The notes beneath the pieces are model-generated. The model did no database searches, had not been told where the DNA came from, and worked only from the letters and a program-made list of their open reading frames with translations. A DNA stretch of 56,347 nucleotides, counting the filler, from Stramenopiles sp. TOSAG23-3 (taxonomy: Eukaryota): NCBI GenBank assembly GCA_900128585.1. It is 4 parts of 4 records of this genome, joined end to end, with 100 filler letters (N's around TTAATTAATTAA, not from the genome) between each part and the next. Parts side by side here need not be neighbours in the genome. Positions count along the whole stretch, not along the records: positions 1 to 25,993 come from LT642280.1; 3 more parts are not named here. One strand, given 5' to 3'. This document shows, piece by piece, positions 1 through 39,461 of this stretch (the stretch's first letter is position 1; each line of letters opens with the position of its first letter). The translations under genes were made by a program, and so were the position numbers.

Positions 1-520
1 TATAATATTAATTACAGTAATAAAATTGAAGATCACATTTTTTCCAAAAAAATAAAAAATAACTTAAATTTTTTTATTCACAAAAAAAATGGTCGTCAAT
101 CAATATTATTAAGGTTTAATAAATGAATATTCATATTGATATATTATATAATATAATTTATATATATGATTGTATTAATTGTACCTTAATCTATTTATTA
201 TTGATCCAATGCTATGTCCTACCGCCGTGATTATTTCAAAATCTCTTTTCTGTGGTGGGGAAGAGAGAAAAAAGAAAGAAAGAAAAACAATTATTATTAT
301 TATTATTGTATGATATGAGAAGAAATAATTTAATATGGAAAAAAAGAGATAGAGAATATACATACATTTGATTTTTAAAAAAGAGAATGGAACTATAATT
401 AAACGTTAAATATTAAGGCAAGAAGAAATTATTGTTTACGGCAAGAGGGGTCATTTTTTCCTTTGTTCTAGGGAAACGTTCCAACTATACTATCTACAAT
501 ACTCACTGGGCAAAGAAGGG

Positions 521-3160
521 ATGAAGCCCGAGGCCCAGCTTGGTCGGGGTCGGGCGTGCATAGACTTTAGAACAGTCATGGATTTGCCCTCTAAAAGCAC
601 TGGGTTGAGATATCTCCTTCTTTCGCCAATAATATTGTGTACGTGGTTCATCTTTCGGTGTTCTTTACTGTTCGAGCCGTCTCGACAGGAGCTCTCTCTG
701 TTTTGTGGGATTTTGGTGGGCACTCTGTTCCTAAAAACCTTGGGCCACGTTTCCGTCCGCAAGAGCACTACGTCCAGCAATGGGAAATCAGTTCCGTACC
801 CACCGAGCCGCAAACGCGAGAAAACATTTAAGCAAAAAATTGGGGCCATAGTTCCATGCCACAAATCTGAGGCTGAGATTAAGAAAGGACTTCAAAGTCT
901 TTTGATAAAAGGGATTTTGCCGGAACATATTTACGTGATGGATAATGCCGACTCACCGGTACCGCCAGACGATACTAAAAGGGTCGTGCGCTGCATACAC
1001 CCGGGAATTAAGTACATATTTATACCCAAGGGCCTGAAGACTTTTGCGCTGTGGAAGGCCACAAACGATTTTCCTAGCACCGTAAAGTACATTCTTCATT
1101 TGGACGACGACACTGTGCTTGCAGACAGCATCCGCTTCAACGAGGCAACATTCGATGACCCGACCGTAAGCTCGATTTCTTACAATATTCGAGTGAGGGA
1201 CCTGAGCGGGCGTTCTTCCGCGGACAGTGCGGCAAGCTGGTTGCATCGGTGCATTGATTTTGAGTTCTCCCTGAAAAACTCATGGCGGGTGTTTCAGACT
1301 AAGTATGAGGGGACTGGATGGTGGGCGCATGGAATATGTGGACTGTGGCGCCGCGAAGCATTCTACGAAACCTTGCGCAGCCACCCCTTTCGCCCGTTCG
1401 GGGAAGACACTTGGTTGGGTGCAATAAACTCTTTTCGAGGATACCGCATGGTGCACGAGTGCCATGGAAACGTATTTACGCACGCGCCGTCTACGCTATG
1501 TTCGTTCAGTAGCCGTATACAGGGGTACGGAGCGACATCGCTATGGAAACAAAGAGCCAAGCGGTGGTATGTCACAAATTTTTCCCTGTTGCATATACGC
1601 CTGCTGCAGTTTTTTACAAGGTTGCCAAAGCACAGTCCCGTTTCTCGTCTCCAGGAGATTGTATACCGCTCGGAGTTGCTCCTTCAACCCCTGTGGCATT
1701 TTATGCATTTGCTGTGGGTTCCGTCGATAACATTCAGGTGCTTCATGTATTTTTCGCTGCCGGAACAAATTATTGCAGCCTTGGCCTTGTACGCGCTTCT
1801 TCTGTTTCACTTTTATGTGGTCAGTGCGTTGGGATTCCCGAAAGAGCAACGGAAGGGGGACATCTTGTTTTCCTACCCACTGTTTTACCTGTTTTTGTCG
1901 TTGACCGAAGTGTATGCGTCTTGGTATGCATTGCTTGTGTACATTCCCATGTTTCCATCGAAAATCGGTCGATACACTTCAAGGACAGAGCTTTTGAAAA
2001 CGTTGCAGAAAACTGCAGTAGAGGCTTCCACTAAGTCGGTAGACGAAACCAAACAGACTCTGCGCAAGTTTTTAAAAATGAAACCTGGGGATGCCGACAA
2101 CAACCAGTTGGTGTACCACTACATTGCCGGGCGCCTGGTGAATGCGATCGAGAAATATCCTGGCGTTTTGGGCGCGCCCCTTTCCAAAATTGGCTTTGCA
2201 CGCACAAGCGGTGAAGTTCGGGAACAGTGCAACTATCGATGCGCAGACTTTTTTATTTTAGGAGCTTCAAAATGTGGGACTACGTCCCTATCAAGGCATT
2301 TATTAGCCCATCGAAAAATATCGTTCTTGTCCAGACTAGGCGGAGAGTCCTGTTCGCGGACGTTTCTGGAACAAGACGTGTCTCGGCTGACTTGTGACAA
2401 CATGGATGCTTTAGAGTGCCACATTTACGACAAGCGGCACGCCTCTGTATCATTCATGCACGCTTTGAACCGATTGTACACCCCACAAGATGACGGGGGC
2501 GGAAGCAAGCTTGGGCATTACACCCCACATTACCTGTACCACCCGTCAGTTCCGTTCAATATCCGTGATACATACACTGCTGAGTCTTTGAAAGCTTTGA
2601 AATTCATCGTGATGCTGCGAGAGCCCGTTTCTCGGGCGGTGTCGAGCTGGAAGTACAAAGTGCAGTGTGGGAAAGAGCACAGATCTCTTGAAAAGGCGAT
2701 AAAGGAGGGCATGTTTCAAGTGACATCATCGGAACGAATGTTGTCCCTGAAAGATTTTCAAATCGGATCTGAAACCTTTAGGAATCATTGGGAGTCTGCT
2801 ATTTTGGATGCCCCGGGTAGAACATGCTCACCGTTTAAGGACCATGTCGGTAAAGGCGTTTATAGCCTGCAATTAGAGCTGTGGTTTTCTATATTTTCAA
2901 ACCGAGAGCACTACAAATTTATCCCCCTTGAAAGTTTGAGGGATCGGCCAAAAAAGACCGTTAGAGACGTCCTTGAGTTTGTTGGATTAGAAAGCACGGA
3001 AGAGTGCAACCAATCTACGCAAATTCGGTACAACGGATCGAAGCCTTCTGGGGTCAAATTAAGTGCCGAAGACCTTAGGGCTATTGAACGGCTGAAAGAG
3101 TTTTACCGCCCGTATAATGAGAAATTGTATGCAATGATTGGTCGGAAATTGGGTTGGTAG
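521..3160 (+). CDS. Processive GT2 glycosyltransferase (chitin/hyaluronan-synthase-like) fused to a C-terminal PAPS-dependent sulfotransferase
   Basis: 879-aa ORF (alternative ATG 578). Two N-terminal TM segments; GT2 motifs IVPCH, VMDN, HLDDD, GEDT and QRAKRW (QxxRW-like), followed by several TMs. C-terminal 5'-PSB loop GASKCGTTSL, 3'-PB motif LREPVSRAVSSW, and a KGVYSLQLELW...LKEFYRPYNEKLY tail typical of HS3ST/NDST-type sulfotransferases. Confidence 0.85.
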   Translation: MKPEAQLGRGRACIDFRTVMDLPSKSTGLRYLLLSPIILCTWFIFRCSLLFEPSRQELSLFCGILVGTLFLKTLGHVSVRKSTTSSNGKSVPYPPSRKREKTFKQKIGAIVPCHKSEAEIKKGLQSLLIKGILPEHIYVMDNADSPVPPDDTKRVVRCIHPGIKYIFIPKGLKTFALWKATNDFPSTVKYILHLDDDTVLADSIRFNEATFDDPTVSSISYNIRVRDLSGRSSADSAASWLHRCIDFEFSLKNSWRVFQTKYEGTGWWAHGICGLWRREAFYETLRSHPFRPFGEDTWLGAINSFRGYRMVHECHGNVFTHAPSTLCSFSSRIQGYGATSLWKQRAKRWYVTNFSLLHIRLLQFFTRLPKHSPVSRLQEIVYRSELLLQPLWHFMHLLWVPSITFRCFMYFSLPEQIIAALALYALLLFHFYVVSALGFPKEQRKGDILFSYPLFYLFLSLTEVYASWYALLVYIPMFPSKIGRYTSRTELLKTLQKTAVEASTKSVDETKQTLRKFLKMKPGDADNNQLVYHYIAGRLVNAIEKYPGVLGAPLSKIGFARTSGEVREQCNYRCADFFILGASKCGTTSLSRHLLAHRKISFLSRLGGESCSRTFLEQDVSRLTCDNMDALECHIYDKRHASVSFMHALNRLYTPQDDGGGSKLGHYTPHYLYHPSVPFNIRDTYTAESLKALKFIVMLREPVSRAVSSWKYKVQCGKEHRSLEKAIKEGMFQVTSSERMLSLKDFQIGSETFRNHWESAILDAPGRTCSPFKDHVGKGVYSLQLELWFSIFSNREHYKFIPLESLRDRPKKTVRDVLEFVGLESTEECNQSTQIRYNGSKPSGVKLSAEDLRAIERLKEFYRPYNEKLYAMIGRKLGW

Positions 3161-3686
3161 AATCATAAAAAGATTTTTTTATACTTTCGAATTTATTTTT
3201 TTCACTATATTGATGAATTTACATCGTACCGAATGCCCTGTGGGCCTGTGGGGTGGTATTTTATTTCGATGTTCATCATAGTGCGCTCTTGTTGTTTTTT
3301 GCGAGAACCTCGTCGTTCGGTAGTGTTAGAATAGTACAACAGCACCGTACTTCATTTCACCAGGTAAGTAAATACAAGGACACAGTATTACCAAACCACA
3401 ATTCTTCGCAAACAACCTTTCTTCTTCTTCTATTTTTATTATTATTATTATTTCGTCGTAGTAGTAGTACGGTACTTGGTATTGTCGTCTATAATAATAA
3501 TATACAATAATAACAGAAGAATTATTATTATGATGAGTACTATTTGACTGGCGACGCTGAATCATCACACAAAGCATTTGTTCGTTGCGTTGGAAACGAA
3601 AATGTACGGAGCTTTTCTTTTGTTCACCAAAAAGTAGACGACGAACTAAGTAAATTGAATTTGTTTCTCTAATCAAATAAGAGAAA

Positions 3687-4400
3687 ATGAATTTAGACGA
3701 TTTGAACTATTTGGGAAAGAAAGCGAGGCGTAGGTTTGGGGCACGTGCCAATGAGGCAGTGTCGACTGAAACTTCGAACACCGCGAAAAAAATGATGGAA
3801 AAGATGGGGTGGACAGAGGGGCAGGGGTTGGGGAAGAACAGTGACGGAAGATCGACTCATATTGCTACCAAGAAGAGGGAAGATAAAAAAGGCTTGGGTC
3901 ATGGAAAATTAGAAGTTTCGCAAGGAAAAACTATCGACTGGTCGACAGAGGCAAAAGACGGTCGAACTCACGAATTATGGTGGAACGACGTGTACTCCAA
4001 GAACAGCGATAAGAAGAAGAAGAAGAAGAAAAAGAAGAAGAGCAAGAAAAAACGCAAGCGTTCAGACAGTGACGATAGCTCTGATGATGACGACTTGGAT
4101 GCCAAATTGTTTAAAGCCTGCGGCGGGACACGCCTTGGCATGCGAGCGCGCGGGGAACAGGACGGGAAATTTAAAAGAACCGAGGAAGCGGATTCTATTT
4201 TTCTGGCAAAGTACGGCGGCGGGGATTATGCTGATAAGAAGAAGAAGAGCAGTAGTAGCGATAAGTCGCCTGGAGTGAAAGACTCCCCGGGTAGAGAAAA
4301 GAAATCGAAGAAGGAAAAGAAGGAAAAGAAGGAAAAGAAGGAAAAAAAGGAAAAAAAGGAAAAGAAGTCAAAAAAAGAGAAAAAAAAGAAAAAGGAATAA
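3687..4400 (+). CDS. GPATCH4: G-patch domain protein (GPATCH4/PINX1-like, probably nucleolar)
   Basis: G-patch AKKMMEKMGWTEGQGLGKNSDG; WWNDVY and LFKACGG blocks resemble GPATCH4; KKE-repeat tail. Confidence 0.75.
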   Translation: MNLDDLNYLGKKARRRFGARANEAVSTETSNTAKKMMEKMGWTEGQGLGKNSDGRSTHIATKKREDKKGLGHGKLEVSQGKTIDWSTEAKDGRTHELWWNDVYSKNSDKKKKKKKKKKSKKKRKRSDSDDSSDDDDLDAKLFKACGGTRLGMRARGEQDGKFKRTEEADSIFLAKYGGGDYADKKKKSSSSDKSPGVKDSPGREKKSKKEKKEKKEKKEKKEKKEKKSKKEKKKKKE

Positions 4401-5041
4401 GTTGATACAAAGATCAGTTCTGTAATCATTCCAACTAAACCAAACAAATTTAACCAACCGACGACGACTAGCCGTGTATACTATTAATACTAAAAAAATG
4501 TAAAAAAAATGATGATGATGGATGCGCCACACTATAATACATAGACGCAGCAGAGGAATGAGGGAGGAAGAAGTGAAGAAGGAATAAAAAAAAGAAGAAG
4601 AAAAGAAGAAGAAGAAGAAAGAAAAGAAAAGACAAAAAGAAGAAGAAGAGAAAAAAAGAAAAGAAAAGAAAAGAAAAAAAGAAGAGAAGAAGAAAAGAGA
4701 ATACATATTTAATATACTTTTATAATTGATTTACCTATATATATATACAGAAAGAAGATCTTTTCTACTCCTCTTCTTCTACAGTAAAAAGAAAAGAAGA
4801 AAAAAAAAAAGAAGAAGAAGAAGAAAAAAAAAGAGAAGTAGTAGAAAATCTCGAATATTATATAATAAACAATACTTCAAATAAATTTATCATGTCATCA
4901 ATGACTCAATATAAAAGACGAAGTGAACAGCAATCCCTTTACTTTGATTTAAAGAAGATAAGGTGTATTAAATGTATATAGGAAAGTACTAGATTCTGCA
5001 TTTCCACCATAAGAAAGAAAAGTAATCGAGAAAAGGGTAGG

Positions 5042-6232
5042 ATGGAAACGCGGCCCCTCCGTCGTCGCAATACTGACAATAAAGAAACTGGGTTGCATGG
5101 GAGCCCAAGACTGCGAGCGGCGGGGTCCTATACTCGTAGAGCCGGAGAAAATGTGCTAGAGCGTCTTTTGCTTGGGTTGCATGAATTCCAGCCCCAAGGT
5201 GGTATATACGTGTTTGTGTTTACGTTTTTTGTTAGCTGGTCCTTTGCCCGTATTTTTGAAACGCTTTCAGGAAAGGGTGAGGCACCCGACCACTCTTTGC
5301 GTTGGCCCTTGGGAGTGTTTCTTGGCACGACCCTTGCAAGCCTTTGGATCGGTGAGGATGAAGAGGACGCGTCGAGTCGCGGCAGCGTTTTAGTGCTGCT
5401 CCGCTCTCGGATTTTGCACATTGCAAAGCTATTTGGGGCCGCAGTGTCGATATCGTTCTTTGAACGGTTTCTCGTGTTTCCCTACGCGGCAACATCTTTG
5501 TTTCTTCCCGCAGCTCTATCTATGGTCGCTCAAGACAGGTATATAGCTTTACGGATTTCTTCGAAGGGCCAACGTCGAATGGAAAGATCCAATAGTTTCT
5601 ATGAAACCGATTCAAAGACTGTGTACTCCTACGTTTGCTGCTGCGCTGCTAGGAATCGCGGCGGTGCAGCGCGCCCAAGCAAACAAAAGAGTGCGTACCA
5701 ACGCGCCGTCATTTTGAACCTCCTCTTTATCCTGTTCGCTATGGTAGTAGTGCTTTTCCACCTCAGATACCCGGCGAAACTAAACGGTTCTGTTCTAAAG
5801 CGACTTCCGCCGACCCCTTACTTTGGGATAACGTTGTTCCCATTTTCGAAGCCCGCTGTTGGCGAAGGTGGCAAACAGAAGAACACAAAGAAAACCTTTG
5901 CCGATGGTTACTTCAATTACAAGGGCAGGAGGGAAAAGAACGCCAGGGGGAACGACGACGAGGAGGAACCCCTTGAGTTCGGGCAAAAGGGAAAGGAGAA
6001 GAAGACGGAATATATGGTAGAGTTAGGAATGTCTCCAGGGGCTGACTTTTCCCTGAAGGATTTAAAAAATCATTATCGCACCCTTGCCATGAAGTACCAC
6101 CCAGACAAGTGCGGGCATGGCGGGTATGACCTGGACGAAGACCTATGCCAAGAACGTTTCATTAGAATTAGAAAAGCAAGCGAATACTTGGAAAGGTGGA
6201 AAAAGCGTGAAACTGATAGGCGGCGTCGTTGA
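5042..6232 (+). CDS. Membrane protein with C-terminal DnaJ (J) domain
   Basis: Several hydrophobic segments; C-terminal LKNHYRTLAMKYHPDK...ERFIRIRKASEYL J-domain with HPD motif. Confidence 0.8.
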   Translation: METRPLRRRNTDNKETGLHGSPRLRAAGSYTRRAGENVLERLLLGLHEFQPQGGIYVFVFTFFVSWSFARIFETLSGKGEAPDHSLRWPLGVFLGTTLASLWIGEDEEDASSRGSVLVLLRSRILHIAKLFGAAVSISFFERFLVFPYAATSLFLPAALSMVAQDRYIALRISSKGQRRMERSNSFYETDSKTVYSYVCCCAARNRGGAARPSKQKSAYQRAVILNLLFILFAMVVVLFHLRYPAKLNGSVLKRLPPTPYFGITLFPFSKPAVGEGGKQKNTKKTFADGYFNYKGRREKNARGNDDEEEPLEFGQKGKEKKTEYMVELGMSPGADFSLKDLKNHYRTLAMKYHPDKCGHGGYDLDEDLCQERFIRIRKASEYLERWKKRETDRRRR

Positions 6233-6377
6233 GTGTTTGTTAAGAGTGTCTTTTCCAGAAGTGTTTTACCAAAGCATTAAATAACCCAAGTTCATAAATC
6301 AAATACTCTGTAAACGTACCTGCCTGCCGGCCTCGATGTACCTAAAGTAAACAAAATGTATTTTTCGCCGTGGTGCT

Positions 6378-9125: not shown

Positions 9126-11522
9126 ATGAGTGAGGGTCCCGTTGCCCAGGAGAAAAGCGTTCCTCCCGAGCAGGCGCCATCTTCGCCCCAGGGTGATTCT
9201 TCCTCTGCTGACAAATTCCCAAAGAAGCGAAAGTCCATTGTGGCGAGGCTGTTTGATCACGGTCCCAACTTTGCCCGTGCTCGGTCCGGATCGGATGACA
9301 AAACTAGCGGCTGGAAGAAAGCTGTCGGGTACGCGCCAGCAGTAATTCTGACCAGGGAGCAACAAAAGGAATTTCGAGAACAAGAAATGAAAAAGTTTGA
9401 GCTTCAGTTCCAAGAAGATACCAAGGTGACGACCAAACCTTGGAAATTGAAAGTGCTGGCATGGTTGGACTCGACCCCCATCGAGGTAATGATGATGATG
9501 CTGACGGTGTTCGCGCTGTACGGTGCGGACATAGCTAACGCCCACGGCACCAAAGAAGACATTGTGCCAATGAGTATCACGAACCTAGTTGTCATGATTG
9601 TGTTTTTGGTCGAGCTTGGGATCAATTCCGTGTGCAAGCCGGGCTACTTTCTTATGGGAAACTTTTGGCTCGATTTCCTCGCCGCAGCATCGCTCATTGG
9701 GGACATCAACTTCATCGCCGACGAAATCATCCCGTCTGGCTTTGCCGCAGCCCGCGCCGGGCGAGCGGCTAGGGCGGGGACCAAGGCCGGCCGTTTGGTA
9801 AAGCTGGTGCGATTGACGCGGCTGGTGCGTTTGGTTCGCATCGCACGCCTTCGAAAGTACATGAAACGCAAACAAAGGGTTTCGGTAGTGGACATGCGCG
9901 GAACCGAGGAGGAGAGGGAAATCCTTCGAAAAGCACGGGAACGGGACAAAAGAGCCAATGCCAACGAGAATACGGATGAAAGCGCTGACGGGATTGCGAA
10001 TGGTATAGCGGGCCTAACCACGTTCAAAGTTATTGTTCTGATTCTTCTTATGCTTTTGGCCATTCCCATGCTCCAGATAAACCCGCATGAAGTCGACAGC
10101 CGAGGCCACGCGTTGGTATCGCTGCAGTCCATTGCCGAATCATCAGACGACTCTACGCTGATCGCTGCGGGGGTAAGCTCGTTCAAAAACAACCCCGATA
10201 ACAAAGACTTGGTCCTTTGGATGCGTGTGAACGGATCGGACTTCGTTCCGAAAAACAATGACAAGATTGACAGCATGAGATCGGCGGACCTTCAGCCATA
10301 CGGGTATGGCGGCGCGTCATGCGGCACCAACTGCTATTTGTATGATGAAAAATTCCCTGCGCTGTTGGTGTACGATATCGAAGTGTTCAACCGCGCCGAC
10401 GCGACCAACTCTTGCTGGACGACAACCTTTATCATTGTTCTCATCATAGGGGCTATGCAGCTCTTTCGAATGGATGCGAACAAGCTGGCGGACCGTATGA
10501 CTGATCCGTTGGTAGTCCTATCAGAAGATATGGAACTTGTTTCAAACATGTCTTTGGGAACCACCATATCCCACAAGCCTTCAAGCGTGAAAGAAATCCG
10601 AAACATCCAACAAACGTTCTTGAGAATGAAGTATGGTCTTGGATCGTTTGCAAAGTATGTTCCCTACGAAGTTGTCAGGGGAATGATGTCGAGGGGAGAG
10701 GAAGCAGTTTTGGGCGTAGCGCCCAGAGAAATAACAATTTTTTTTAGCGATATAGCCGGGTTTACAACCATTTGTGAAAAGATGAAACCGAACGAACTGT
10801 TGATTCTGTTATCGGATTATTTTGCAGCCATGTCCACGCTGATTAGCCAAAGCGACGGGACGCTGTTAGAATTTATCGGGGATGCTATACTGGCCGTCTG
10901 GAACGCCCCCATGGCAGTTTCCGACCACGCATACCAATGCGTAGAGCAAAGCATAAAAATGCACTCTTACCTCGACAAAATGCAACCAGAATGGGCTGGA
11001 AAGGGCTATCCTCCTATAAAAATAAGGTGTGGGATTCACACTTCAACTGTGTTTGTAGGAAACATCGGGTCGCCCGACCGAATGAAGTATGGGGTTCTTG
11101 GGGATGGGGTTAACTTAGCCTCGCGTCTGGAAGAACTGAACAAGCGGTACTCGACCCGAATGATGATCTCGATCAATACTCGAACAAAGCAAAAGGTTAC
11201 AGACCACTTTTTAATTAGACCACTGGATGTAGTCGCAGTCAAGGGGAAATCAAAAGGGACCGCAATATTTGAAGTTATGGGGCGTTTGAAACACGCTGAT
11301 GATTTTGAAAAAAGTATACAGCAAGCCCATGAGCAAGGTTTTCAGTTTTACCAGAAGCAAGAATGGGACAAAGCAATTGAAAAGTTTGATGAAGTCATAA
11401 AAATTCGTGGTGGTGCGGATGTAGCTGCGCAGTTGATTAAAGACCGCTGCATAAGCATGAAATCAAATCCTCCTCCGGCAGGGTGGGATGGGTGTGAAGT
11501 CCTGAATCAAAAACACTTTTGA
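9126..11522 (+). CDS. Membrane class III nucleotidyl cyclase: voltage-sensor-like 6TM region, HAMP-like linker, cyclase domain, TPR-like tail; predicted guanylyl cyclase
   Basis: S1-S4 with Arg-rich S4 (RAGRAARAGTKAGRLVKLVRLTRLVRLVRIAR); catalytic motifs FFSDIAGFT, LEFIGDAIL, IRCGIH, KYGVLGDGVNLASRLE; FAKYVP linker and PPPAGWDG tail as in bacterial class IIIb enzymes. Confidence 0.88.
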   Translation: MSEGPVAQEKSVPPEQAPSSPQGDSSSADKFPKKRKSIVARLFDHGPNFARARSGSDDKTSGWKKAVGYAPAVILTREQQKEFREQEMKKFELQFQEDTKVTTKPWKLKVLAWLDSTPIEVMMMMLTVFALYGADIANAHGTKEDIVPMSITNLVVMIVFLVELGINSVCKPGYFLMGNFWLDFLAAASLIGDINFIADEIIPSGFAAARAGRAARAGTKAGRLVKLVRLTRLVRLVRIARLRKYMKRKQRVSVVDMRGTEEEREILRKARERDKRANANENTDESADGIANGIAGLTTFKVIVLILLMLLAIPMLQINPHEVDSRGHALVSLQSIAESSDDSTLIAAGVSSFKNNPDNKDLVLWMRVNGSDFVPKNNDKIDSMRSADLQPYGYGGASCGTNCYLYDEKFPALLVYDIEVFNRADATNSCWTTTFIIVLIIGAMQLFRMDANKLADRMTDPLVVLSEDMELVSNMSLGTTISHKPSSVKEIRNIQQTFLRMKYGLGSFAKYVPYEVVRGMMSRGEEAVLGVAPREITIFFSDIAGFTTICEKMKPNELLILLSDYFAAMSTLISQSDGTLLEFIGDAILAVWNAPMAVSDHAYQCVEQSIKMHSYLDKMQPEWAGKGYPPIKIRCGIHTSTVFVGNIGSPDRMKYGVLGDGVNLASRLEELNKRYSTRMMISINTRTKQKVTDHFLIRPLDVVAVKGKSKGTAIFEVMGRLKHADDFEKSIQQAHEQGFQFYQKQEWDKAIEKFDEVIKIRGGADVAAQLIKDRCISMKSNPPPAGWDGCEVLNQKHF

Positions 11523-11646
11523 AGGGGGAGTCAGAGAGAGTAAAAAAGATAAGATATATCAATATTGGTAAAGCGTAAGTTTATTTTTAAAACAAAACGT
11601 TTATAAAAATTAAAAAAATAACCTTGAATTAATTCAGAACTCCTAA

Positions 11647-11829
11647 TATGACGTTATATCCAGACGTGAAGGATTCATTTTCAAAGGCAAAAGTGGTGTT
11701 CTTAGCTCTTCTGGGGCGTCCGAGCGCATTGCGAAGGTAATGATGACGGTTGTGCTAGCAGCTAGCGCGCACCAAATGCGTCATAGCTTTGCAACATAAG
11801 CTTTGCAGGCTGGACATCAAATTGAAACG
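11647..11829 (+). pseudogene. Tyrosine recombinase/integrase fragment (box II region) with an in-frame stop
   Basis: Manual translation from 11647: YDVISRREGFIFKGKSGVLSSSGASERIAKVMMTVVLAASAHQMRHSFAT*ALQAGHQIET, matching the HxLRHSFATxxLxxG signature. GC-rich island in an AT-rich spacer; absent from the ORF track. Confidence 0.7.
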
Positions 11830-11924
11830 AAAACAAGAAAATTGGCTGTTATTTAAGTAACATATCATATGTAATTAAATTTAGCTTCCTCTTCCCGATA
11901 ATTTAACCAATTTTTTGTTTTTAA
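11830..11924. repeat. Dispersed gene-3'-end repeat family copy, with degenerate inverted partner
   Basis: AAAACAAGAAAATTGGCTGTTATTTAAGTA at 11830; inverted CCAATTTTTTGTTTTTA at about 11907-11923. Confidence 0.7.
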
Positions 11925-11972
11925 TTTAGATATATGATATACTAAATTCAGGTTTTTTTTTAAGTTTTATAT

Positions 11973-14864
11973 TTACCTATCGGTAGTGAAAATTCTACCA
12001 CGAAAGAGTTTTCCAGTTAAAATCTTTTTCTTCTTCCGCTGCGGCGGCTGTGGAATTAAAGATCGTGGTTTCGTAATGCGCCGGGACGGTGGTGGAATAG
12101 GAGGAATTTCTGTTGCACCCACTGCCATATGACGGTTCGGTGCTGGAGCGTTTGTGTTCGGTTGGTATTCTTGTGCTAAACTCTTGCGCCACATAAATTC
12201 CTCAGCATCGGAGCATGAAGGTTCATTTTCGGGAAGTGTTTCACTGTTCTCAGCTTTGCTGGTACATTTTCCTTTTATCTGAGGGGGTTCCACGGGTTGA
12301 GACCGTATGTACATGTCTTGGGCACGTTTTAAGGCGTTGAGGGTTGTTGTTTGATAGGGTATGTGCCGGTGGTCTTTCATGCATTCCATCGGTTTCGGCG
12401 GCTTCCTAAGGAACACATCAGCTCGCTGTACGTGGGCTGTGGCTTTCCCATGGGAGGTGTGCGGTGGTTCTTGACAGCTTGGGGATAAGAAGTTTCGAAA
12501 ATTTTGTTTGCGCTGAAGTAAAACTTTTATACTGTTCAATGTTTCCACCGGGAAACTTATGCCTGCCTGCTCGCGTGTTATTGAATACGCGATGACGGGG
12601 CCGATCGTGCGAATGGTGTTTGGCTCGACGGATAGTTTCACGAGCCTTTGAAAGCTTGAATATTGATACTTGCGGAAAAGCGCTGAGTATCCGACAAGTG
12701 CCGTATCGCCCAATTTGCTCACAACTGCCCCGGTAGTGCCGTCAAGGACGGCCAGCTCGCCCCTGGCAATAAAAAATAGTTTTGATGAGCACTCTCCTCT
12801 TTTTACCAAATCAACATTTTTTTCTACGTGCTGCAAATGCATGTACGGTAAGAAACGATAGTGTTTGTTCAGTGACCAAAGTCTTAGCTCAGGGATGCGT
12901 TTTATCAACCTATATTTGTCTCTGTTTGTATTGCTGTAGCGGCCAGAGGTGTGTGTGGCCGTTCCTTGAAGCTCTGCCTTCTGCCAATAATGTTTTGAGA
13001 TTTTTATCAAAATGCATTTGGTTGTAGCAATAGCAGTAGTCGGTCGCATGCCTATTTCTAAAACGGCCAAGTCGCCAAATGTGTCTCCGCTGGAAAGCGT
13101 TGCTATATTGTGGAGGGTTTTCGTGCCTTCGTACACCAGGTTGACTTGTCCAGCAAGGACAACAAAGCACGCCGCGCCGTGCTCGCTTTGACTGTACACG
13201 CGCTCCTGTGCCGGTGTATGGGCGTATGACAGCCCATCTGTCAACGTTACCATTTGGCTCTTGCTCCAATCCCCGCACCTTTCCTTCACCATATTGCACG
13301 TATAGAGCAGTGAAATCAAAAAGTTTTTCTCGAGCTTCGACCGGTCGTTGTTAATCAACGATTTCATGCAAAACCGGTGTAGTAATGAGAGATTTTTTGT
13401 GTCGCTTGCAGCCTTGACTTCGTTTGCGTCCAATTGTAAACTTGAAAGCAGTGCTTCCGAGTTTTTCGAATTTAAATTCTCCAAAAGTCGCTCGTAAAGG
13501 ACGCACCGCGTTGGTAATTTGTCTGAACGCACCATGTTTCTGGAAGCCCTAATTATCCGTGCCCGGAATGACGACCCATTACGTTGCTCTAAGCTGAGGG
13601 ATAGTTTTTCTACCAGCGCACTCGTTGCTTCTGACGTTTTCTTCGTGGTCAATGCATCACTTTGCACCATGTCGGTAACAGCCTGGTCTCTTGTAAAGTC
13701 TTTGAATAACAGGCCATCTTTGTCTTGCAAAATGTTCGTATCCGCGAGTCCATGCCGAATTTCATGCTGGTACGAAAGCATTTCCTTCACTTCGAAGAGG
13801 TGCTCATGGCATTCTTCTTCTTTTATGACAATGCACAAAATGTCGGTTGCGGCCGTCGCCGTTTCCGTTCTATTTTTTCCCTGGCCACTAATAAGGAACG
13901 CTTCTCCAAAGTAGTCGTGGGCCTCTCGAACACGAATTTCATGCGTCCACTTTCTGTGTATATTTGCTGGAACGGAAAGGGATATTTTCCCATCTATTAA
14001 CATGTACAAGTGCTCGGCAACAGAGCCAAATTCGTAAACGATGGAGCCTTTTGGGTAGACCTTTGTTTTCGATACCAAACATAAATTTTTCAACGCCCGT
14101 AACGATAAACTGCGAAATGCAACGATGTTCTGGATCGCCCTCATTCGAAATTGCACTTGTTTCTCTGTGTGTAGTTGCTCGTTCTCGCCAAGGACAGAGA
14201 GGAACCGCTGCTTAGATAGCTCCATACAAACACAATCTTCCCTCGCCACAATCGTGGCCGTGCGAATGCAATGTTCCGATAGCAATGCCTCTTCGCCGAA
14301 CCACTCGTGCGCATGCTTGTACCCTACAATGTGCTCCTCTTCTGTGGGGTTATTTGTGTCTTTCTTGTGCAGGACAACAACAGACCCTGCTTTTATGATG
14401 TAGAACTTTGCGCCAGGTTCGCCTTGCTTTACAATCGTCTCGCCCTTCTGAAACTCACTCTCAGCCATATGCTTTGCAACTTGTTCGAGCTTCGTCTTTC
14501 CGATCTGTATTGCCAGGCCTTTTATCTTTGATAACATTTCGGCTCTATTTCGTAGTTCCAGAGTGGCCCCTAGGTCTCTCTCGTTTTTCAACAGCATCTT
14601 GCCATGCAACTGTTTCATACGCATTTCCCGCAGAAAAGGATCCACCAATCTCCCTTGGCGTTCATATTTTCTAAGGTAGGAGGTTGATTTCCTTCCTTTG
14701 CATCTATGGTTATTCTTCATGGCAAATATGATTGGTGGAAAGCATAGGAATCTCCTTTGCCATGACTTAATTTGAGAGGTAAAATTGTACATTTGTGATG
14801 TGACTTTGCTTTGTGGTTTGGCGGTATATAAAAATGGACCATTGTTGAACATGAATGTGATCAT
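11973..14864 (-). CDS. Multi cyclic-nucleotide-binding domain protein (about 4 CNB domains, no kinase domain)
   Basis: 963-aa ORF (true start may be ATG 14720). CNB motifs GETIVKQGEPGAKFYIIKAG...WFGEEALL..RTAT, YFGEAFL..RTET, TFGDLAVL..RPTT, plus a degenerate fourth copy; disordered C-tail. Confidence 0.85.
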   Translation of the reverse strand: MITFMFNNGPFLYTAKPQSKVTSQMYNFTSQIKSWQRRFLCFPPIIFAMKNNHRCKGRKSTSYLRKYERQGRLVDPFLREMRMKQLHGKMLLKNERDLGATLELRNRAEMLSKIKGLAIQIGKTKLEQVAKHMAESEFQKGETIVKQGEPGAKFYIIKAGSVVVLHKKDTNNPTEEEHIVGYKHAHEWFGEEALLSEHCIRTATIVAREDCVCMELSKQRFLSVLGENEQLHTEKQVQFRMRAIQNIVAFRSLSLRALKNLCLVSKTKVYPKGSIVYEFGSVAEHLYMLIDGKISLSVPANIHRKWTHEIRVREAHDYFGEAFLISGQGKNRTETATAATDILCIVIKEEECHEHLFEVKEMLSYQHEIRHGLADTNILQDKDGLLFKDFTRDQAVTDMVQSDALTTKKTSEATSALVEKLSLSLEQRNGSSFRARIIRASRNMVRSDKLPTRCVLYERLLENLNSKNSEALLSSLQLDANEVKAASDTKNLSLLHRFCMKSLINNDRSKLEKNFLISLLYTCNMVKERCGDWSKSQMVTLTDGLSYAHTPAQERVYSQSEHGAACFVVLAGQVNLVYEGTKTLHNIATLSSGDTFGDLAVLEIGMRPTTAIATTKCILIKISKHYWQKAELQGTATHTSGRYSNTNRDKYRLIKRIPELRLWSLNKHYRFLPYMHLQHVEKNVDLVKRGECSSKLFFIARGELAVLDGTTGAVVSKLGDTALVGYSALFRKYQYSSFQRLVKLSVEPNTIRTIGPVIAYSITREQAGISFPVETLNSIKVLLQRKQNFRNFLSPSCQEPPHTSHGKATAHVQRADVFLRKPPKPMECMKDHRHIPYQTTTLNALKRAQDMYIRSQPVEPPQIKGKCTSKAENSETLPENEPSCSDAEEFMWRKSLAQEYQPNTNAPAPNRHMAVGATEIPPIPPPSRRITKPRSLIPQPPQRKKKKILTGKLFRGRIFTTDR

Positions 14865-14998
14865 CAGTGTAACGAATATTAAATGTGGTGGTAAGGAAAA
14901 AATAGCTATAATATATATAATAAAAATAATAATAATAATAATATAATAGTCGACGACTATTATATAAATTATATCTGCTGCTTTTTGGTCTGTTTATT

Positions 14999-15053
14999 TA
15001 AAAACAAGAAAATTGGCTGTTGTTGTTATTGAAGTAATTAAAATTAATGTACT
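14999..15053. repeat. Dispersed gene-3'-end repeat family copy
   Basis: TAAAAACAAGAAAATTGGCTGTTGTTGTTATTGAAGTAATTAAAATTAATGTACT matches the copies at 11830, 21406, 41110 and 54748. Confidence 0.7.
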
Positions 15054-15216
15054 TATCTAGACTCTAATATACTTCAAGTGTAAAATTTATCTTCTTCATA
15101 TCATTAGGTTCCATTATATTCCTTTTTAAAATAATAGTTTATTTTAGTGTCTATTTATCAACCACAGCAGAGACGACGTCCCAAGTCTTTTCGAGCTGTG
15201 ATCTTGAAATCGTCAT

Positions 15217-16797
15217 TCAAACCTTCATGTATATCACTACGTCTTGACCGCGCGACAGATGCTCAAAGATGACGCGGGTTGCGTAGCTTGCTTTTTGGAC
15301 GAAAAACTTTGAGTTTACATAGACGGTACCACAGGCCATTGGCGTGTCCCAGTCCCTTGTGGGCCACTCCCCTTGCTTCAAATCCGAGTAACTCTCCAAC
15401 ACGACGACATCGTGGCCGTCGTACACGATAGAATTAGTACACTTTCTCCAGGGACGGCTTTGGCACAACAACGCAGGGTCGTTGCCGTCATCGCCGCCGG
15501 CTTGCTCCAATATGCTTTCGCTTACATTTTTGAATTCTACGAGGGGCAACTTGGCGGCCCCGGAGGCTATGCTTACTATACGTTTGTAGACCACCTCGGG
15601 CGATTCGGTTGCCACTTTGTTCGACACTATCAAAAAATTCTTTTCAAACGCGCACGTCTGCAGTACTAGCTCAAAATAAATCCCATTCAAGATATCCAAA
15701 TCTACCAAAGGGACAACGCTCCTGTCTGTGGCTGTGGTTTTTTGAGCGTATTCTACTAGATTGCGATGTGCAACAGACGGCTCCGAAGCGACGAACACAT
15801 TCAACACTTTGCATGTAGGCGACCCGCCTTTCGGCCGCGCTCTAATCGCCAGGCCAGACTTCGCCACCATGTTGTTGAAAAACGTGCGGTAGCAGTTCAT
15901 CTGGTAATCTGTTAAGCGGCCCTTTCTGAAATCGAGAAGGGCCTTCCCAAAAAGCCCCACGGGGCTGGCATCGGAAAATGCCATTCGCGTTGCCGGCGTT
16001 CCGCCCCCTAACTTCACCGTGTTGAAGCAGTGATCCAGGGTGCCCATCCCAGTCGACAAACAATGAATGTGCCACGCTAAGGAAATCTCTGCCGGGTTCT
16101 CCGCCTTTGCCGAGAGCAACGTATGCTCTTTTTCGTGGCCGAACACATGCAATCGAGCGGTCTCGTTGGACGAACGCCCTTGAAAAAAAGAAAACGTCCC
16201 CGCAGCTGCAGATCCCGGTAGACCCATTATCGTCACTACCAATGGCTCGTGCTTGTCACTGCGGTCGTTTGCGCTTGCTTGCGGCGCCGACAACCCCGCC
16301 CGCGGTGCGTCGGAGCTTGCTGCAGAGGGTGCGCTCCCTGAGCACGTTGCCTCCGACTCAGTATTGGCACTTTCAGCATCAAGCGCGTCGCTTCGTCCCG
16401 CGCTGCTTTGTTCCACTACTTCGTTCACCAACTGCTGCAATTCATCGTCCTCCCCGATAATCTCTTCAATGTGCTTTGGGTCGATTCTTGGCTTCTTTTT
16501 CTTCCTCCCAGCATTCGCATCTGGGACAGTCCTCACTTCGTCCAGGCTTCGTTTCCCGGCCGCGTTCAGAACCTGCGCGGTGACATGTTCCAACACAGCA
16601 GCAAGAAATACAGGAACGTTTGGTGCAACTTTTGGCTTGGCTCCCAATAGATCCGCCTGTGATGATTCCAGCGCTTGAAGCACGTGAGAGCTTGAAAACA
16701 GCGGCTCTTCGGAGAATATCGAACTTATACTAGATGCCGCCCCAGACGACGCTCCCGAGGTGCTTTTCTTCTCGGTACCTTTACCGGCCTCCGACAT
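15217..16797 (-). CDS. Histone H2A-fold domain fused to a degenerate deoxynucleoside-kinase-like P-loop domain
   Basis: First ATG 16797. KVAPNVPVFLAAVLEHVTAQVLNAAG...KKPRIDPKHIEEIIGEDDELQQLV aligns with H2A ([25 protein letters not shown]...[24 protein letters not shown]). Then an Ala/Ser linker, VVTIMGLPGS (eroded P-loop), LTDYQMNCYRTFF, VFVASEPSVAHRNL and LDILNGIY in dNK-like order. Confidence 0.75.
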   Translation of the reverse strand: MSEAGKGTEKKSTSGASSGAASSISSIFSEEPLFSSSHVLQALESSQADLLGAKPKVAPNVPVFLAAVLEHVTAQVLNAAGKRSLDEVRTVPDANAGRKKKKPRIDPKHIEEIIGEDDELQQLVNEVVEQSSAGRSDALDAESANTESEATCSGSAPSAASSDAPRAGLSAPQASANDRSDKHEPLVVTIMGLPGSAAAGTFSFFQGRSSNETARLHVFGHEKEHTLLSAKAENPAEISLAWHIHCLSTGMGTLDHCFNTVKLGGGTPATRMAFSDASPVGLFGKALLDFRKGRLTDYQMNCYRTFFNNMVAKSGLAIRARPKGGSPTCKVLNVFVASEPSVAHRNLVEYAQKTTATDRSVVPLVDLDILNGIYFELVLQTCAFEKNFLIVSNKVATESPEVVYKRIVSIASGAAKLPLVEFKNVSESILEQAGGDDGNDPALLCQSRPWRKCTNSIVYDGHDVVVLESYSDLKQGEWPTRDWDTPMACGTVYVNSKFFVQKASYATRVIFEHLSRGQDVVIYMKV

Positions 16798-17542
16798 TAT
16801 ACACTGGCAACAAAAAACACCCCCCACGCGCGTATAAAACGTCAGTCAAAAGCTAATCTTTACTCGTTGATTGTGCACGCGCTGATAAAAATCAAATCGC
16901 AATAAAGTGGATAAAATCGTGTTTCTGCGCATTCATATACTTCTTATTCATAAATCATTCTTATTTCTATCAAAAGGTACTATTCTTGAATTATTACAGC
17001 ATCATCATTCTTCTACTACCGTACCCTTGGATGGTGGTATATTCAAAATAACACAAACGCACACGTTGGAAGGAAGAGGAGAAGGAGAAGGAGAAGGAGA
17101 AGGAAGGAAGGAAGGAAGGAAGGAAGGAAGGAAGGGTCGATGAGGCGGGCTGCTACGAGGCGATAGGTGCGCTTCTCTTTCCTTCTTCGCTGGCGGCGAC
17201 TGTGTGCTGAGTGTCTGTGCGTGCTGGCTGCTGGCATGCTGGGTGCTGGCCTTTTTTCTTTTTTTGGATTGCTGCATGAAGCGGATGATTGATCGGTAAA
17301 AAGTTAAAAAATATATTAAAGAAATATTATAGATTTAAAATTCTTATGCAACTCTATGCTTAATAAACAGCCATACGCCGTGCGTTGTTTACATCTACAA
17401 AAGTATAAAAAAAACAAAAGCAAAGTTAAACGGGTATTCTTCCACAAAGTTTGTGCCATAAATTCTACTAAGCGCCCCCAGCCCATACGTGCCTCTTCGT
17501 TTGCATTTAGAGGGTGCGGGTCAATCAAACACACAGACCGCT

Positions 17543-30916: not shown

Positions 30917-31939
30917 TTACTGGAGGACACACGCCGCGCTTCTTGGGGTATTCGTTGGGGTGTCCTTTCCCTGATTTTTCTTTGCGTTTACCATAATGTT
31001 TTTCAACGACTGGTACTCTTCGGTAGCAGCAAAGGCCGCAAATTTCGCCTTTTGCATTTCGTTGCAGCTCTTCTCGATGTCGCCAAACATCTTGATGCTG
31101 GGTTTTCCAAGCTGAAAGGCGATTTCTTTTCTATTTTCAATTGTAGTGCTTACCTCGTACTCAGACCCTTCCATGATGAAGGCGACGTAAATTAGCCATG
31201 CAATTTCCTTTGACTTGTTCGACTTTTCATCGAAATGCTTTTTGAACCCTTGAATCGCTTGGTAGCACATGGTGTTTTCCGCAGCATGCAGCTTTCCCAA
31301 ATACTTTGTGAACACTCGGGTCATGTACTTGTCTGAGAGGATTTGATCTAAGGTGACGTTTGGAAAATCGATCTGTTTCAGCTTGAACCCTGGCTGGTTG
31401 AAGAGCGTGTCGGGAAGAATCCCCATGCTGGAGAATTTGGAGAATATATCGTCTGCAGACCGTTTGACGCTCATCAGCTGCCGCAAGAGGACGTAGTCTT
31501 CCGATTGCTTGAACCGAAGGAAAAGGTCGGATTTCAAAGTTTGGTGGGCTTCCTTAATGGCCAGCTCGAACGCGGCTTGGGTCGGTGGACTGCATTCCAA
31601 AGCTTCCATGACGCCTTCGCGCGCCCCACTGCTCAGAGATATTTCCGTCGGGGAGTTCGTCGCTAGAAACTCTTCGTAAATCGCTTTGGCGTCCAAGATG
31701 ATGTCGGCCTCCGATTGAGACTCGTACTTGTTGATCCACCATCCAACCGAATGAAAAAACCTCAAATTTTCATCGCAAAAGCATTTGGCGGCGAAATGTT
31801 CCAGAAAACCAACTAGTGCAGGATTGGCCAGAAAATCGTCCAGCACTTTCTTGTCTAACCCGTCGTCGTCAAAGTCCAGCGTCATCTCGTGCATCAGCGA
31901 CATCCGTCGGTTATTTGGCGTTGTCGCAGGAGTTGCCAT
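30917..31939 (-). CDS. Tandem RGS-domain protein with C-terminal CaaX
   Basis: RGS1 CDENLRFF...AKAIYEEFL..SPTEISLS; RGS2 AAENTMCY...AWLIYVAFIMEGSEYEVS; ends CVLQ. Confidence 0.85.
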   Translation of the reverse strand: MATPATTPNNRRMSLMHEMTLDFDDDGLDKKVLDDFLANPALVGFLEHFAAKCFCDENLRFFHSVGWWINKYESQSEADIILDAKAIYEEFLATNSPTEISLSSGAREGVMEALECSPPTQAAFELAIKEAHQTLKSDLFLRFKQSEDYVLLRQLMSVKRSADDIFSKFSSMGILPDTLFNQPGFKLKQIDFPNVTLDQILSDKYMTRVFTKYLGKLHAAENTMCYQAIQGFKKHFDEKSNKSKEIAWLIYVAFIMEGSEYEVSTTIENRKEIAFQLGKPSIKMFGDIEKSCNEMQKAKFAAFAATEEYQSLKNIMVNAKKNQGKDTPTNTPRSAACVLQ

Positions 31940-32812
31940 GGCACCACCGTTCGACAGAAGGGGTTTAAAAGAATGCAACCGGACGCACGCAGCCGGTCAG
32001 TCAGTGTTCACAGTTCTCCGCTTTAGCAAGGAGAAACGAACAACCAAAATGCACTCGCCAATCGCTTACCTGTATACCGAATCAAACAAACAAAACAACA
32101 AACAACGAAGAAGTGACATGTTCTCAAACCAAATAAACATTCCCTCCTTTCTTTCCAGGTAAGCTCCTCGTATAAATTAATTGTTGAGCAACACCTATAT
32201 ACTGGTATGGTATACCTCCAATATAATTGGCGTCGTTTTCGTTATATTTAGATTGTCAAAAATATAAATAAATCTCTTTAAAAAGTATAGTACATAAAAT
32301 ATACAAAAATTCTATCAGTATTTAATTGTTAGTTTATGTACTTAATGAAAATTAAACAAGAAACGAAAATATTGTAAAACGATGTTTTCATAAAAAAAAA
32401 AGATCGTCGTTGGTCATCAATGCTGTGTATATGTAAATGGACACCTTTTGTTGGAAATCTTTGTTTTTATTTTTTCATCCATGCTGTGTATATGTATTTT
32501 CAAGAAGAAAAGAATGAAGAAGAAGGAAAAAAAAATATTTAAAAAAAAGAAGAAGGGTTGGATGGAAAAGAAACAACGAAACACATTTCATTGCATGTGT
32601 CATCATGGTTTAAAATGCAAAAGGAGAAAATCAGTTGATCATCGATTTACATTTTGTAAGCATTCTTATGGGAAGGTAACAAATAGAAGTTTGTCGATAC
32701 AGCTTTACATAACTATTGTTTACTTGTTGTAGAGTCTTGCGTTCCCACGTGTTGCGTATAGCTTGGGGACCATACAGAGCGCCGTCCCGCCTCCTGTGTG
32801 TGTACGGACATC

Positions 32813-38797: not shown

Positions 38798-39461
38798 AAT
38801 AGAGGATGAAATTAAATTGTCTTTCGTTCTGTTTACATACAGTTTCTTTTATATATATACATAAACTTTATGGTAATAAATATAATTTATATTTTATTAT
38901 CTTCTTTTTTCTTCTTCTTCTTCTCTTCTCAACAAAACAAAACAATAAAATAATAATTTTTTTTTCTTTTTTTCGTCTCATTATTATTAGTTCTCTTTCT
39001 TCTTTCTTTAATCTAATAAAAAAAAAAAAAGGAATTTTAATAATATTAATATCTTTTCCCCATCTTCTTCTTGATGCTGTGTTTATATAATTATTAAATA
39101 ATATTATTTTTTATTAAAAATTATTATCTTTTTTTTTTGCTTTTTTCTTAATGCTGTGTCTATGCTATATTATTATTATTTTTTGCGAGAATTGATTAAA
39201 AATAAAAATATTTTTAAAAAAAAGTTGAGGACCGACCAACACGTTTTGGATTTAGTAATTTGTGTGTGTGTGTGTGTGTGTGTATCTTTGCATTGGACTA
39301 TTTATATTTAGACTATATATATTTATGTAAAAAGTAAGCTGTGCAACCATTTTGGTTTATTTCATAGGATAGAATCGAACGAACAATATTTTACCATAAG
39401 AAAAAGAAGAAGTGTCACTTTCTTATTCACTAATTAGCCCACTCTCACTCAACAGCAAACA

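Follow-up and report, generated by a model that had tools for sequence, protein, structure and literature searches.

A hyaluronan-synthase-like glycosyltransferase and a sulfotransferase joined in one predicted polypeptide of Stramenopiles sp. TOSAG23-3

In a 56,347-nucleotide stretch of DNA from Stramenopiles sp. TOSAG23-3 (assembly GCA_900128585.1; the whole stretch is hereafter called the window), a single unbroken open reading frame (ORF) at positions 521 to 3160 of the plus strand joins a synthase-type glycosyltransferase family 2 (GT2) module to a sulfotransferase module with intact motifs for binding 3'-phosphoadenosine 5'-phosphosulfate (PAPS). The ORF starts with ATG, encodes 879 amino acids plus a stop codon without any internal stop, and lies in a region of about 42 to 44% G+C. 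We propose that its product is a single, expressed membrane protein active at two sites, in which a trimmed synthase resembling hyaluronan synthase (HAS) carries a cytosolic sulfotransferase, and that this enzyme makes a sulfated beta-glycan. We put the probability of this reading at about one in two. Coordinates within the ORF are given below as window positions on the plus strand.

Both halves of the ORF are recognized by Pfam above the curated cut-offs, as a domain search proposed along with the first-pass annotation of this stretch had anticipated. Glyco_trans_2_3 (PF13632) matches residues 190 to 432 (E = 1.5e-8) and Sulfotransfer_1 (PF00685) matches residues 576 to 829 (E = 7.9e-9; 35.7 bits against a cut-off of 22), and weaker GT2 families (including PF13641 and PF00535) and sulfotransferase families overlap the same two stretches. 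Word-index searches returned few relatives. The informative search was an exhaustive HMMER search over 1.84 billion representatives, which gave 3509 matches at E ≤ 0.001; the best 150 were listed, and the best library relative matched with an E value down to 1.5e-162. Judged from the sequence, a chance match of the ORF to both enzyme families is excluded.

The fused ORF recurs in other assemblies and in a more distant relative. The 90% cluster of the protein comprises 14 sequences drawn from assemblies of ENA, JGI, and NCBI: nine are full-length at 879 residues, two have 814 residues, and three are fragments. Metagenome contig L001 has the same ORF with 9 nucleotide differences in 2640 (4 synonymous, 5 not), and its flanks are collinear with positions 1 to 6305 of the window at about 98% identity. 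The ORF stretch is also present in marine and seawater metagenomes. Among the best 150 of the 3509 matches, two (P0019 and P0018) span both halves. P0019 is a protein of 872 residues with 43% identity to the query, aligned over query residues 100 to 838, and it has the same two Pfam domains; a search for homologs of the fusion thus did return a second protein of the same architecture. A linker segment is also kept between the query and P0019 (YHYIAGRLVNAIEKY versus YLYVVGRALNAVTKH). P0018 is a 373-residue fragment from a 69,450-bp ENA contig and is 78% identical to query residues 363 to 721.

RNA covers nearly the entire ORF. Contigs from four metatranscriptome runs (three studies, one polyA-selected) cover positions 546 to 3153 in colinear order, without joints, indels, or loose ends on the ORF, and contigs at 1848 to 2245, 1725 to 2163, and 1868 to 2221 run from the membrane/synthase module into the linker. 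The gene is thus expressed. Positions 1 to 545 and 3154 to 3700 had no contig cover in the four runs, and the mapping skipped repeats at 135 to 165, 258 to 316, and 3416 to 3471. Cover that stops at both ends of the ORF fits an intron-less mRNA; it may reflect very short untranslated regions or flanks that are too repetitive.

We considered whether neighboring genes had been joined by misassembly or by a lost stop codon, or whether the gene is in decay. P0018 lends this idea some footing, since it has frame-shifted stretches, one of them across the 5'-phosphosulfate binding motif (5'-PSB); these shifts are either indel errors of its assembly or the marks of a decaying copy in a sister species. 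However, the independent assemblies concur, the 43% identical orthologue P0019 retains both the fusion and the conserved linker segment, the catalytic residues of the query are all intact, and the RNA cover is colinear. An artefact is largely refuted by these observations, and we consider it extremely improbable. Separately, we noticed that one shifted stretch of P0018 is similar to a +2-frame ORF of the window (1543 to 2034). The central claim of the first-pass annotation, that one polypeptide combines a synthase-type GT2 with an intact PAPS sulfotransferase, is thus upheld by the ORF call, the two Pfam domains, the copy in L001, the conserved fusion, and the RNA contigs.

The first half of the protein has the full set of GT2 motifs (D, DxD, ED, and a QxxRW-like motif) that the first-pass annotation had reported, each where it had been placed. 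A GT-A catalytic domain (residues 100 to 340; 818 to 1540), recognized by PF13632, PF13641, and PF00535 and modeled with a predicted local distance difference test score (pLDDT) mostly above 90, contains D141 (in VMD141N), D195-D196-D197 (in HLD195-D196-D197-T; nucleotides 1103 to 1111), and G294-E295-D296 (in FG294-E295-D296-TW; nucleotides 1400 to 1408). The model and the alignment place K343-Q344-R345-A-K-R348-W349 (nucleotides 1550 to 1567) in interface helix 2 (residues 341 to 355; 1541 to 1585). This corresponds to the Q(Q/R)xRW motif expected in an interface helix, with RxxRW spacing and the Q shifted by one residue: the motif is one residue longer than canonical, as had been noted, when counted from Q344, and is a canonical RxxRW when counted from R345. 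According to passages of PMC11750622, QxxRW sits in interface helix 2 of HAS. In an alignment of 29 GT2 sequences, H114, S116, E119, D141, N142, D195 to T198, G294 to D296, Q334, K343 to R345, R348, and W349 are invariant.

An AlphaFold2 model built from a 38-sequence alignment (mean pLDDT 77.7; predicted template modeling score, pTM, 0.55) is confident for the GT2 and membrane module (residues 100 to 480) and for the sulfotransferase (570 to 879), and of low confidence at the N terminus and at residues 488 to 570. The modeled first module combines a GT-A fold with the D, DxD, and (T/G)ED motifs characteristic of processive synthases, with fold matches at Z of 17 to 27. In the VIA comparison, its best match is CvHAS (Z 27.3, root mean square deviation [rmsd] 3.3, 341 aligned residues), a result in which Foldseek concurs; XlHAS1 (Z 24.4 to 24.9), yeast Chs1 (Z 24.6), and BcsA (Z 21.6 to 23.2) are also matched, and then plant CesAs. 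The non-processive PcManGT is matched at Z 24.1 over 323 residues. With hyaluronan synthases as top match (Z 25 to 27), the predicted fold is consistent with the processive synthase proposed in the first-pass annotation.

The likeness to class I HAS (CvHAS and XlHAS1; PDB 7SP6-7SPA and 8SMM-8SNE) extends over the modeled module (Z 24 to 27, rmsd 3.2 to 3.7, 341 to 367 aligned residues). Both have two N-terminal transmembrane (TM) helices, a cytosolic GT-A domain, the RW motif in interface helix 2, TM helices 3 and 4 (TMH3-4), interface helix 3 (IF3), and a conserved loop at the gating-loop position. They differ in that identity is 11 to 14% with no sequence match at E ≤ 0.01, the query has GED-T/W and QRxxRW where HAS has GDDR and QxxRW, TMH5 and TMH6 are absent, and a sulfotransferase is appended. 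Class I HAS are recognized by GDDR, by WGTRG or WGTSGRK/R, and by four C-terminal TM helices; the query instead carries GEDT(W), lacks a WGT motif, and after its GT domain has two TM helices plus IF3 only. It also falls outside the chitin synthase and NodC families. Chitin synthase families are absent from its seven Pfam matches at E ≤ 1, its score against the NodC model TIGR04242 is 17.2 bits against a cut-off of 550, which excludes membership, and a search of the ESM Atlas with residues 90 to 490 returned generic bacterial GT2 clusters only. By its predicted fold, the first module would be a HAS-type synthase that lies outside any characterized subfamily.

The synthase continues without a stop into a sulfotransferase with both PAPS-binding motifs, as had been proposed. 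The PAPS sulfotransferase domain (residues 571 to 879; 2231 to 3157), recognized by PF00685, PDB profiles, VIA, and its conserved motifs, is preceded by a helical N-terminal extension (residues 529 to 570; 2105 to 2230) that is conserved between the query and P0019; in the sulfotransferase-only relatives P0125 and P0119, the match begins at query residues 519 and 533. The 5'-PSB (xxKxGT[TS]) reads G581-ASKCGTTSL (nucleotides 2261 to 2290), and the 3'-phosphate binding motif (3'-PB; RxPxxRxxS) lies in M698-LREPVSRAVSS (nucleotides 2612 to 2647) as R700-EPVSRAVS708. Between them, the catalytic E632-C-H634-I-Y-D637 (nucleotides 2414 to 2431) matches Glu-x-His-x-x-Asp in the profile column aligned with GAEPHFFD of 1t8t (EPHFFD of HS3ST3A1). 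The Glu, His, and Asp of that motif have a role in catalysis by heparan sulfate (HS) 3-O-sulfotransferases (3-OSTs). K584, E632, H634, D637, R700, and S708 are kept in 16 of 16 aligned sulfotransferase relatives; the PAPS-binding residues, which the first-pass annotation had allowed might be non-functional, are intact in sequence.

PDB profile matches for this half are to 3rnl (E = 4.1e-28), HS3ST3A1 (E = 1.5e-24), and the HS 3-OSTs generally (E = 1e-24 to 1e-19). Its fold is matched by HS 3-O-sulfotransferases at Z of about 22 to 23 and rmsd of 2.3 to 2.6 (for 6xkg, HS3ST3, VIA gives Z 22.8 and rmsd 2.3 over 229 residues), and then by NDST1 and the bacterial 3RNL. Taken as a group, the HS 3-OSTs and NDST (1T8T, 6XKG, 1VKJ, 3BD9, 1NST, and 8CCY) together with 3RNL resemble the query domain at Z 21 to 23, rmsd 2.3 to 3.1, and profile E values of 4e-28 to 1e-9. 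The query shares with the HS 3-OST/NDST group the 5'-PSB, E-x-H-x-x-D, the 3'-PB, and a C-terminal EFYRPYNxKL...GW motif. It departs from those enzymes in being joined to a membrane synthase, in lacking its own signal anchor, in its probable cytosolic location, and in insertions at 600 to 630 and 740 to 775. NDST is also bifunctional, but it pairs a sulfotransferase with a deacetylase rather than with a polymerase. When the GT2 module and the sulfotransferase domain were docked, the scores were 0.45, 0.02, and 0.01, which favor neither contact nor its absence.

The TM helices described earlier on either side of the GT2 domain are recovered, at residues 28 to 50 and 55 to 79 before it and 376 to 410, 413 to 436, and 446 to 477 after it, with the last assigned differently below. 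TMH1 and TMH2 form an N-terminal hairpin (602 to 757) by hydropathy; the AlphaFold2 model has them at 28 to 50 and 55 to 70 with low pLDDT, and they align onto TMH1-2 of HAS (model residue 27 onward onto CvHAS residue 38 onward). TMH3 and TMH4 (1646 to 1828) are helices of the model with pLDDT of about 80 to 90, and a short helix (residues 357 to 366) lies between the RW helix (341 to 355) and helix 376-410. The VIA alignments end at the remaining helix (residues 446 to 477; 1856 to 1951), which would lie at the cytosolic membrane surface. The aligned ranges are model residues 27 to 477 onto CvHAS 38 to 451, 26 to 479 onto XlHAS1 51 to 490 (ending at 486 to 490), 93 to 479 onto BcsA 130 to 503, and 26 to 479 onto CesA8 195 to 846. 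The gating loop is W454GTRG in CvHAS and residues 485 to 503 in XlHAS1, with WGTSGRK/R at 491 to 497, in the passages of PMC11750622 on HAS; passages of bioRxiv 10.1101/2023.02.07.527505 give F503xVTxK for BcsA and F851 for CesA8. Because the alignments end at the C terminus of IF3, just ahead of the gating loop, helix 446-477 is best read as IF3.

The segment that follows this helix is conserved and, from the alignments, would occupy the gating-loop position (FPSKIGRYTS, residues 478 to 487; 1952 to 1981). The family form of this loop, (F/V)P-x-R-x-G-x-(F/Y)T, matches neither FxVTxK nor WGT(R/K)G. In HAS and BcsA two further TM helices follow the gating loop, whereas the GT2 family of the query lacks them, and GT2-only family members end 24 to 93 residues past the loop in 14 of 24 sequences. 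A charged linker (residues 488 to 528; 1982 to 2104) of pLDDT below 55 then leads toward the sulfotransferase; hydropathy reveals no hydrophobic segment between the loop and the sulfotransferase in either the query or P0019. Since no further hydrophobic segment is present, the sulfotransferase and the GT domain would share one side of the membrane.

That this side is the cytosol is suggested by charge and by the architecture of relatives. The query segments ahead of TMH1 and past TMH2 are K/R-rich, the TMH3-4 loop (408 to 416) is poor in K+R (family mean 0.46), and the regions on either side of helix 446-477 are richer (2.38 at 434 to 448, and 2.08). In four of the six relatives examined with an N-terminal GH16 or lyase domain, which are outside-type domains, three hydrophobic segments lie between that domain and the GT2 domain. 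Neither a TM segment nor a signal-like start is present in the two closest sulfotransferase-only relatives, P0002 and the Hanusia phi (cryptophyte) protein P0049; farther ones (P0003, P0004, and P0154) have N-terminal anchors. In two other family members, P0038 and P0043, the C-terminal domain is preceded by an additional TM helix, which itself follows K/R-rich sequence. Overall, we put the chance that the sulfotransferase is cytosolic, on the same side as the glycosyltransferase, at roughly two in three. The question raised with the first-pass annotation, whether both domains lie on the same side of the membrane, is in this sense answered by the prediction in favor of the same side, although the hydrophobicity of helix 446-477 speaks against it. 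The idea that the polymer is sulfated during export fares less well, as it conflicts with a predicted membrane module that ends at the IF3/gating-loop equivalent with no later TM helix.

From these features we infer topology, processivity, export, and the sulfate acceptor as follows. The N-terminal 487 residues would form a trimmed HAS-like synthase comprising two TM helices, the GT-A domain, interface helices, two further TM helices, IF3, and the gating-loop-like motif. This synthase would most likely polymerize a beta-linked glycan from a nucleotide sugar and thread it out through a channel formed by TMH1-4. Passages of PMC11750622 place the channel-lining residues of XlHAS1 in TMH1-4 and the interface helices and describe the TMH5-6 portal as unused for translocation; because TMH1-4 and the interface helices form the channel there, a four-helix channel is plausible here. 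The sulfotransferase may hang on a tether of 40 to 90 residues off the gating-loop-like segment, close to where the catalytic pocket opens, and with cytosolic PAPS it would sulfate the donor, the primer, or the chain end at the cytosolic face. As acceptor we would favor a primer or short early product, then the nucleotide-sugar donor, then the non-reducing end as a cap.

Several observations weigh against the proposed enzyme. It is not obvious how a cytosolic sulfotransferase would reach a chain inside the channel, and no GT2 synthase is known to us that works with a sulfated donor. All 38 PDB profile matches at E ≤ 0.01 are sulfotransferases, with no GT2 synthase among them; with no sequence-level match to a solved synthase, the substrate is not readable from homology. 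The motifs of the query are unlike those of HAS (GDDR, WGTRG), chitin synthase, and cellulose synthase. No single RNA contig spans nucleotides 2246 to 2282, and the contigs are no proof of one transcript. The topology comes from an AlphaFold model (pTM 0.55; membrane module pLDDT 80 to 94) and from alignment ranges only. Finally, helix 446-477 equals the TM helices in hydrophobicity (family mean <H> 0.45 and hydrophobic moment muH 0.17), so that hydrophobic-moment analysis does not separate it from them; a predictor working from sequence would probably call it transmembrane and place the sulfotransferase outside or in the lumen.

This last point opens a different arrangement, in which helix 446-477 really does span the membrane, as a fifth TM helix, and the sulfotransferase lies in the lumen of the Golgi apparatus or a vesicle, where it would sulfate the emerging polymer with imported PAPS. 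Such an arrangement would give the sulfotransferase easy access to free polymer and suits the hydrophobicity of the helix (Kyte-Doolittle values of 1.4 to 1.46; <H> 0.57 in the query). The nearest solved sulfotransferases are also HS 3-OSTs and NDST, which act in the Golgi lumen, and the farther sulfotransferase-only relatives are anchored. However, the confident part of the model puts the helix at the IF3 position of four solved synthases, the conserved gating-loop-like motif comes right after it, its following flank is K/R-rich throughout the family, and the closest sulfotransferase-only relatives have no anchor. A fifth TM helix would moreover put the C-terminal domains of P0038 and P0043 in the cytosol, even though P0038 has a transporter domain of the nucleotide-sugar/PAPS type. 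On balance we find lumenal sulfation unlikely, if still to be taken seriously.

The enzyme could also make something other than a polymer. The GT2 module may add one or a few sugars to a lipid or build a short cytosolic oligosaccharide, and the tethered cytosolic sulfotransferase would then sulfate the head group, giving a sulfoglycolipid or a sulfated oligosaccharide signal by the logic of NodC and NodH. Both active sites would then face the same leaflet or compartment with the product directly in reach; the four-TM layout without TMH5-6 also fits PcManGT, there is a weak match to NodC, and NodH sulfates Nod factors in the cytoplasm. Against this, hallmarks of processive synthases are present, namely interface helices, the invariant R348-W349 within one of them, and the gating-loop-like motif; HAS outscores PcManGT, and the NodC score is far under its cut-off. 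The GH16, lyase, and lectin domains of relatives are also predicted to lie on the opposite side of the membrane, which implies an exported polymer. We regard a glycolipid or oligosaccharide product as rather unlikely. Less likely by far is that the sulfate serves as a cap, placed on the acceptor hydroxyl of the non-reducing end to halt elongation, free the capped chain, and so control its length. The tether would, judging from the model, set the domain near the pocket entrance, but passages of PMC11750622 describe the non-reducing end as buried at the channel entrance of processive synthases.

The proposed synthase-sulfotransferase has partial parallels in bacteria. In the rhizobial NodC and NodH pair and in the synechan system (XssA/XssE), a GT2 membrane enzyme is likewise combined with PAPS-dependent sulfation that takes place at the cytoplasmic face, ahead of export, but in both the components are separate proteins, and the query does not belong to NodC. 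According to passages of PMC8205485, assembly and modification of the synechan repeat unit, in a Wzx/Wzy pathway, take place on the cytoplasmic side, and some bacterial sulfotransferases act on lipo-oligosaccharides of rhizobia and mycobacteria. The sulfotransferase genes mentioned there belong to clusters of the Wzx/Wzy and ABC types, and none is named in a synthase-type cluster.

Fusions elsewhere in the GT2 family bear on what its members make. Pfam analysis of 38 GT2 relatives found GH16 in three (P0026, P0030, and P0167), polysaccharide lyase PF14099 in one (P0059), alginate lyase 2 in one (P0075), an H-type lectin domain in one (P0104), and a sulfotransferase in two (P0019 and P0038); P0173 is a GT2 relative with a Na+/H+ exchanger domain. 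The GH16, lyase, and lectin domains are predicted to lie outside, which lends indirect support to a polymerization coupled with translocation, and the lyase fusions may hint at uronic-acid polymers in that subclade. P0170 was grouped with P0059 as a PF14099 lyase fusion, and the GH16, lyase, lectin, and exchanger domains are N-terminal. Family members with a named source are P0174 (Durusdinium trenchii, a dinoflagellate) and P0047 (Chrysophaeum taylorii, a pelagophyte).

In a midpoint-rooted FastTree phylogeny built on query columns 100 to 487, the GT2 core, from 29 sequences, the query and P0019 are sisters with support of 1.0, and P0038 falls in another subclade, with P0037, P0040, P0043, and P0045. 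Because the two lie in separate subclades, a sulfotransferase joined this family at least twice. P0038, a metagenome protein of 1298 residues, consists of a TPT/EamA transporter, a GT2 module, an extra TM helix, and Sulfotransfer_3. It resembles the query in joining the same synthase family to a sulfotransferase, which supports a functional link between the product of this family and sulfation. It differs in its GT2 subclade, in the Pfam family of its sulfotransferase, in the extra TM helix, and in the N-terminal transporter domain; it looks like a three-part machine for sulfation in the lumen, on the opposite side from the query. Fusions are also frequent in the sulfotransferase group itself: P0150 has four matched sulfotransferase stretches in 1671 residues, and P0154 combines an N-terminal anchor, a GT92-like domain, and a sulfotransferase. 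In P0169 (1887 residues; considered with P0073), which its source labels a predicted glycosyltransferase, there are two sulfotransferase stretches.

Full-text searches of the literature found no description of a GT2 synthase fused to a sulfotransferase. With this and with two both-half matches among the 150 listed, the fusion appears rare and is not the widespread, characterized family that the first-pass annotation had allowed for. Each domain taken singly is of a familiar type; what is new is their combination, the trimmed core of HAS type, and the placement in the cytosol, which is probable. In its most specific form, in which a eukaryotic sulfotransferase tethered to the gating loop of the synthase uses cytosolic PAPS to sulfate a nucleotide-sugar donor, primer, or chain end and the sulfated chain then passes through a minimal HAS-like channel of four helices, the proposal is possible but doubtful. 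To our knowledge, the Golgi-lumen PAPS route is thought general for eukaryotic sulfated glycans, and sulfation at the cytosolic face would bypass it. If the cytosolic placement holds, sulfation would precede export in a synthase-dependent pathway, which we did not find described in the literature searched.

Sulfated polysaccharides of marine protists and algae are, as far as we know, a large carbon pool whose polymerizing enzymes are essentially unidentified. For brown algae, passages of PMC11468063 describe the genes for sulfated-glycan synthesis as unknown and no GT2 mannuronan synthase as validated. If the proposal holds in this most specific form, the present GT2 family, with its dinoflagellate and pelagophyte members, would be a major class of protist matrix-polysaccharide synthases, and its natural fusions (GH16, lyases, lectin, transporter, and two sulfotransferase types) would point to its products. 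As one gene that would physically couple polymerization and sulfation, the ORF is a candidate testable by heterologous expression, and a one-protein sulfated-glycan synthase could be useful for making sulfated polysaccharides.

The gene context of the ORF is eukaryotic and nuclear. An importin gene lies upstream in L001, and downstream genes in the window encode G-patch, DnaJ, cyclase, cNMP-binding, RGS, and aldehyde dehydrogenase (ALDH) proteins, among others, which give no functional hint. Bacterial contamination was considered and ruled out by the eukaryotic genes on both flanks, in the window and in L001. The G-patch protein (3687 to 4400, plus strand) ends in long K/E/S-rich repeats (KEKKE runs), and long F/S-rich ORFs on the opposite strand (4195 to 4706, minus strand) are probably mirror artefacts of this repeat. 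Signaling genes (cyclase, cNMP-binding, and RGS) lie near one another at positions 9126 to 16827 and 30917 to 31978; they include an adenylate/guanylate cyclase (9126 to 11522), a protein with three cNMP-binding domains (11973 to 14864, minus strand), and an RGS-domain protein (30917 to 31978, minus strand). An aldehyde dehydrogenase ORF (39462 to 41027, plus strand) is mirrored by a 539-residue minus-strand ORF (39423 to 41042), probably as an effect of composition; the G+C fraction at 39423 to 41042 is 0.56, versus 0.34 to 0.35 at 20 to 22 kb and 26 to 28 kb.

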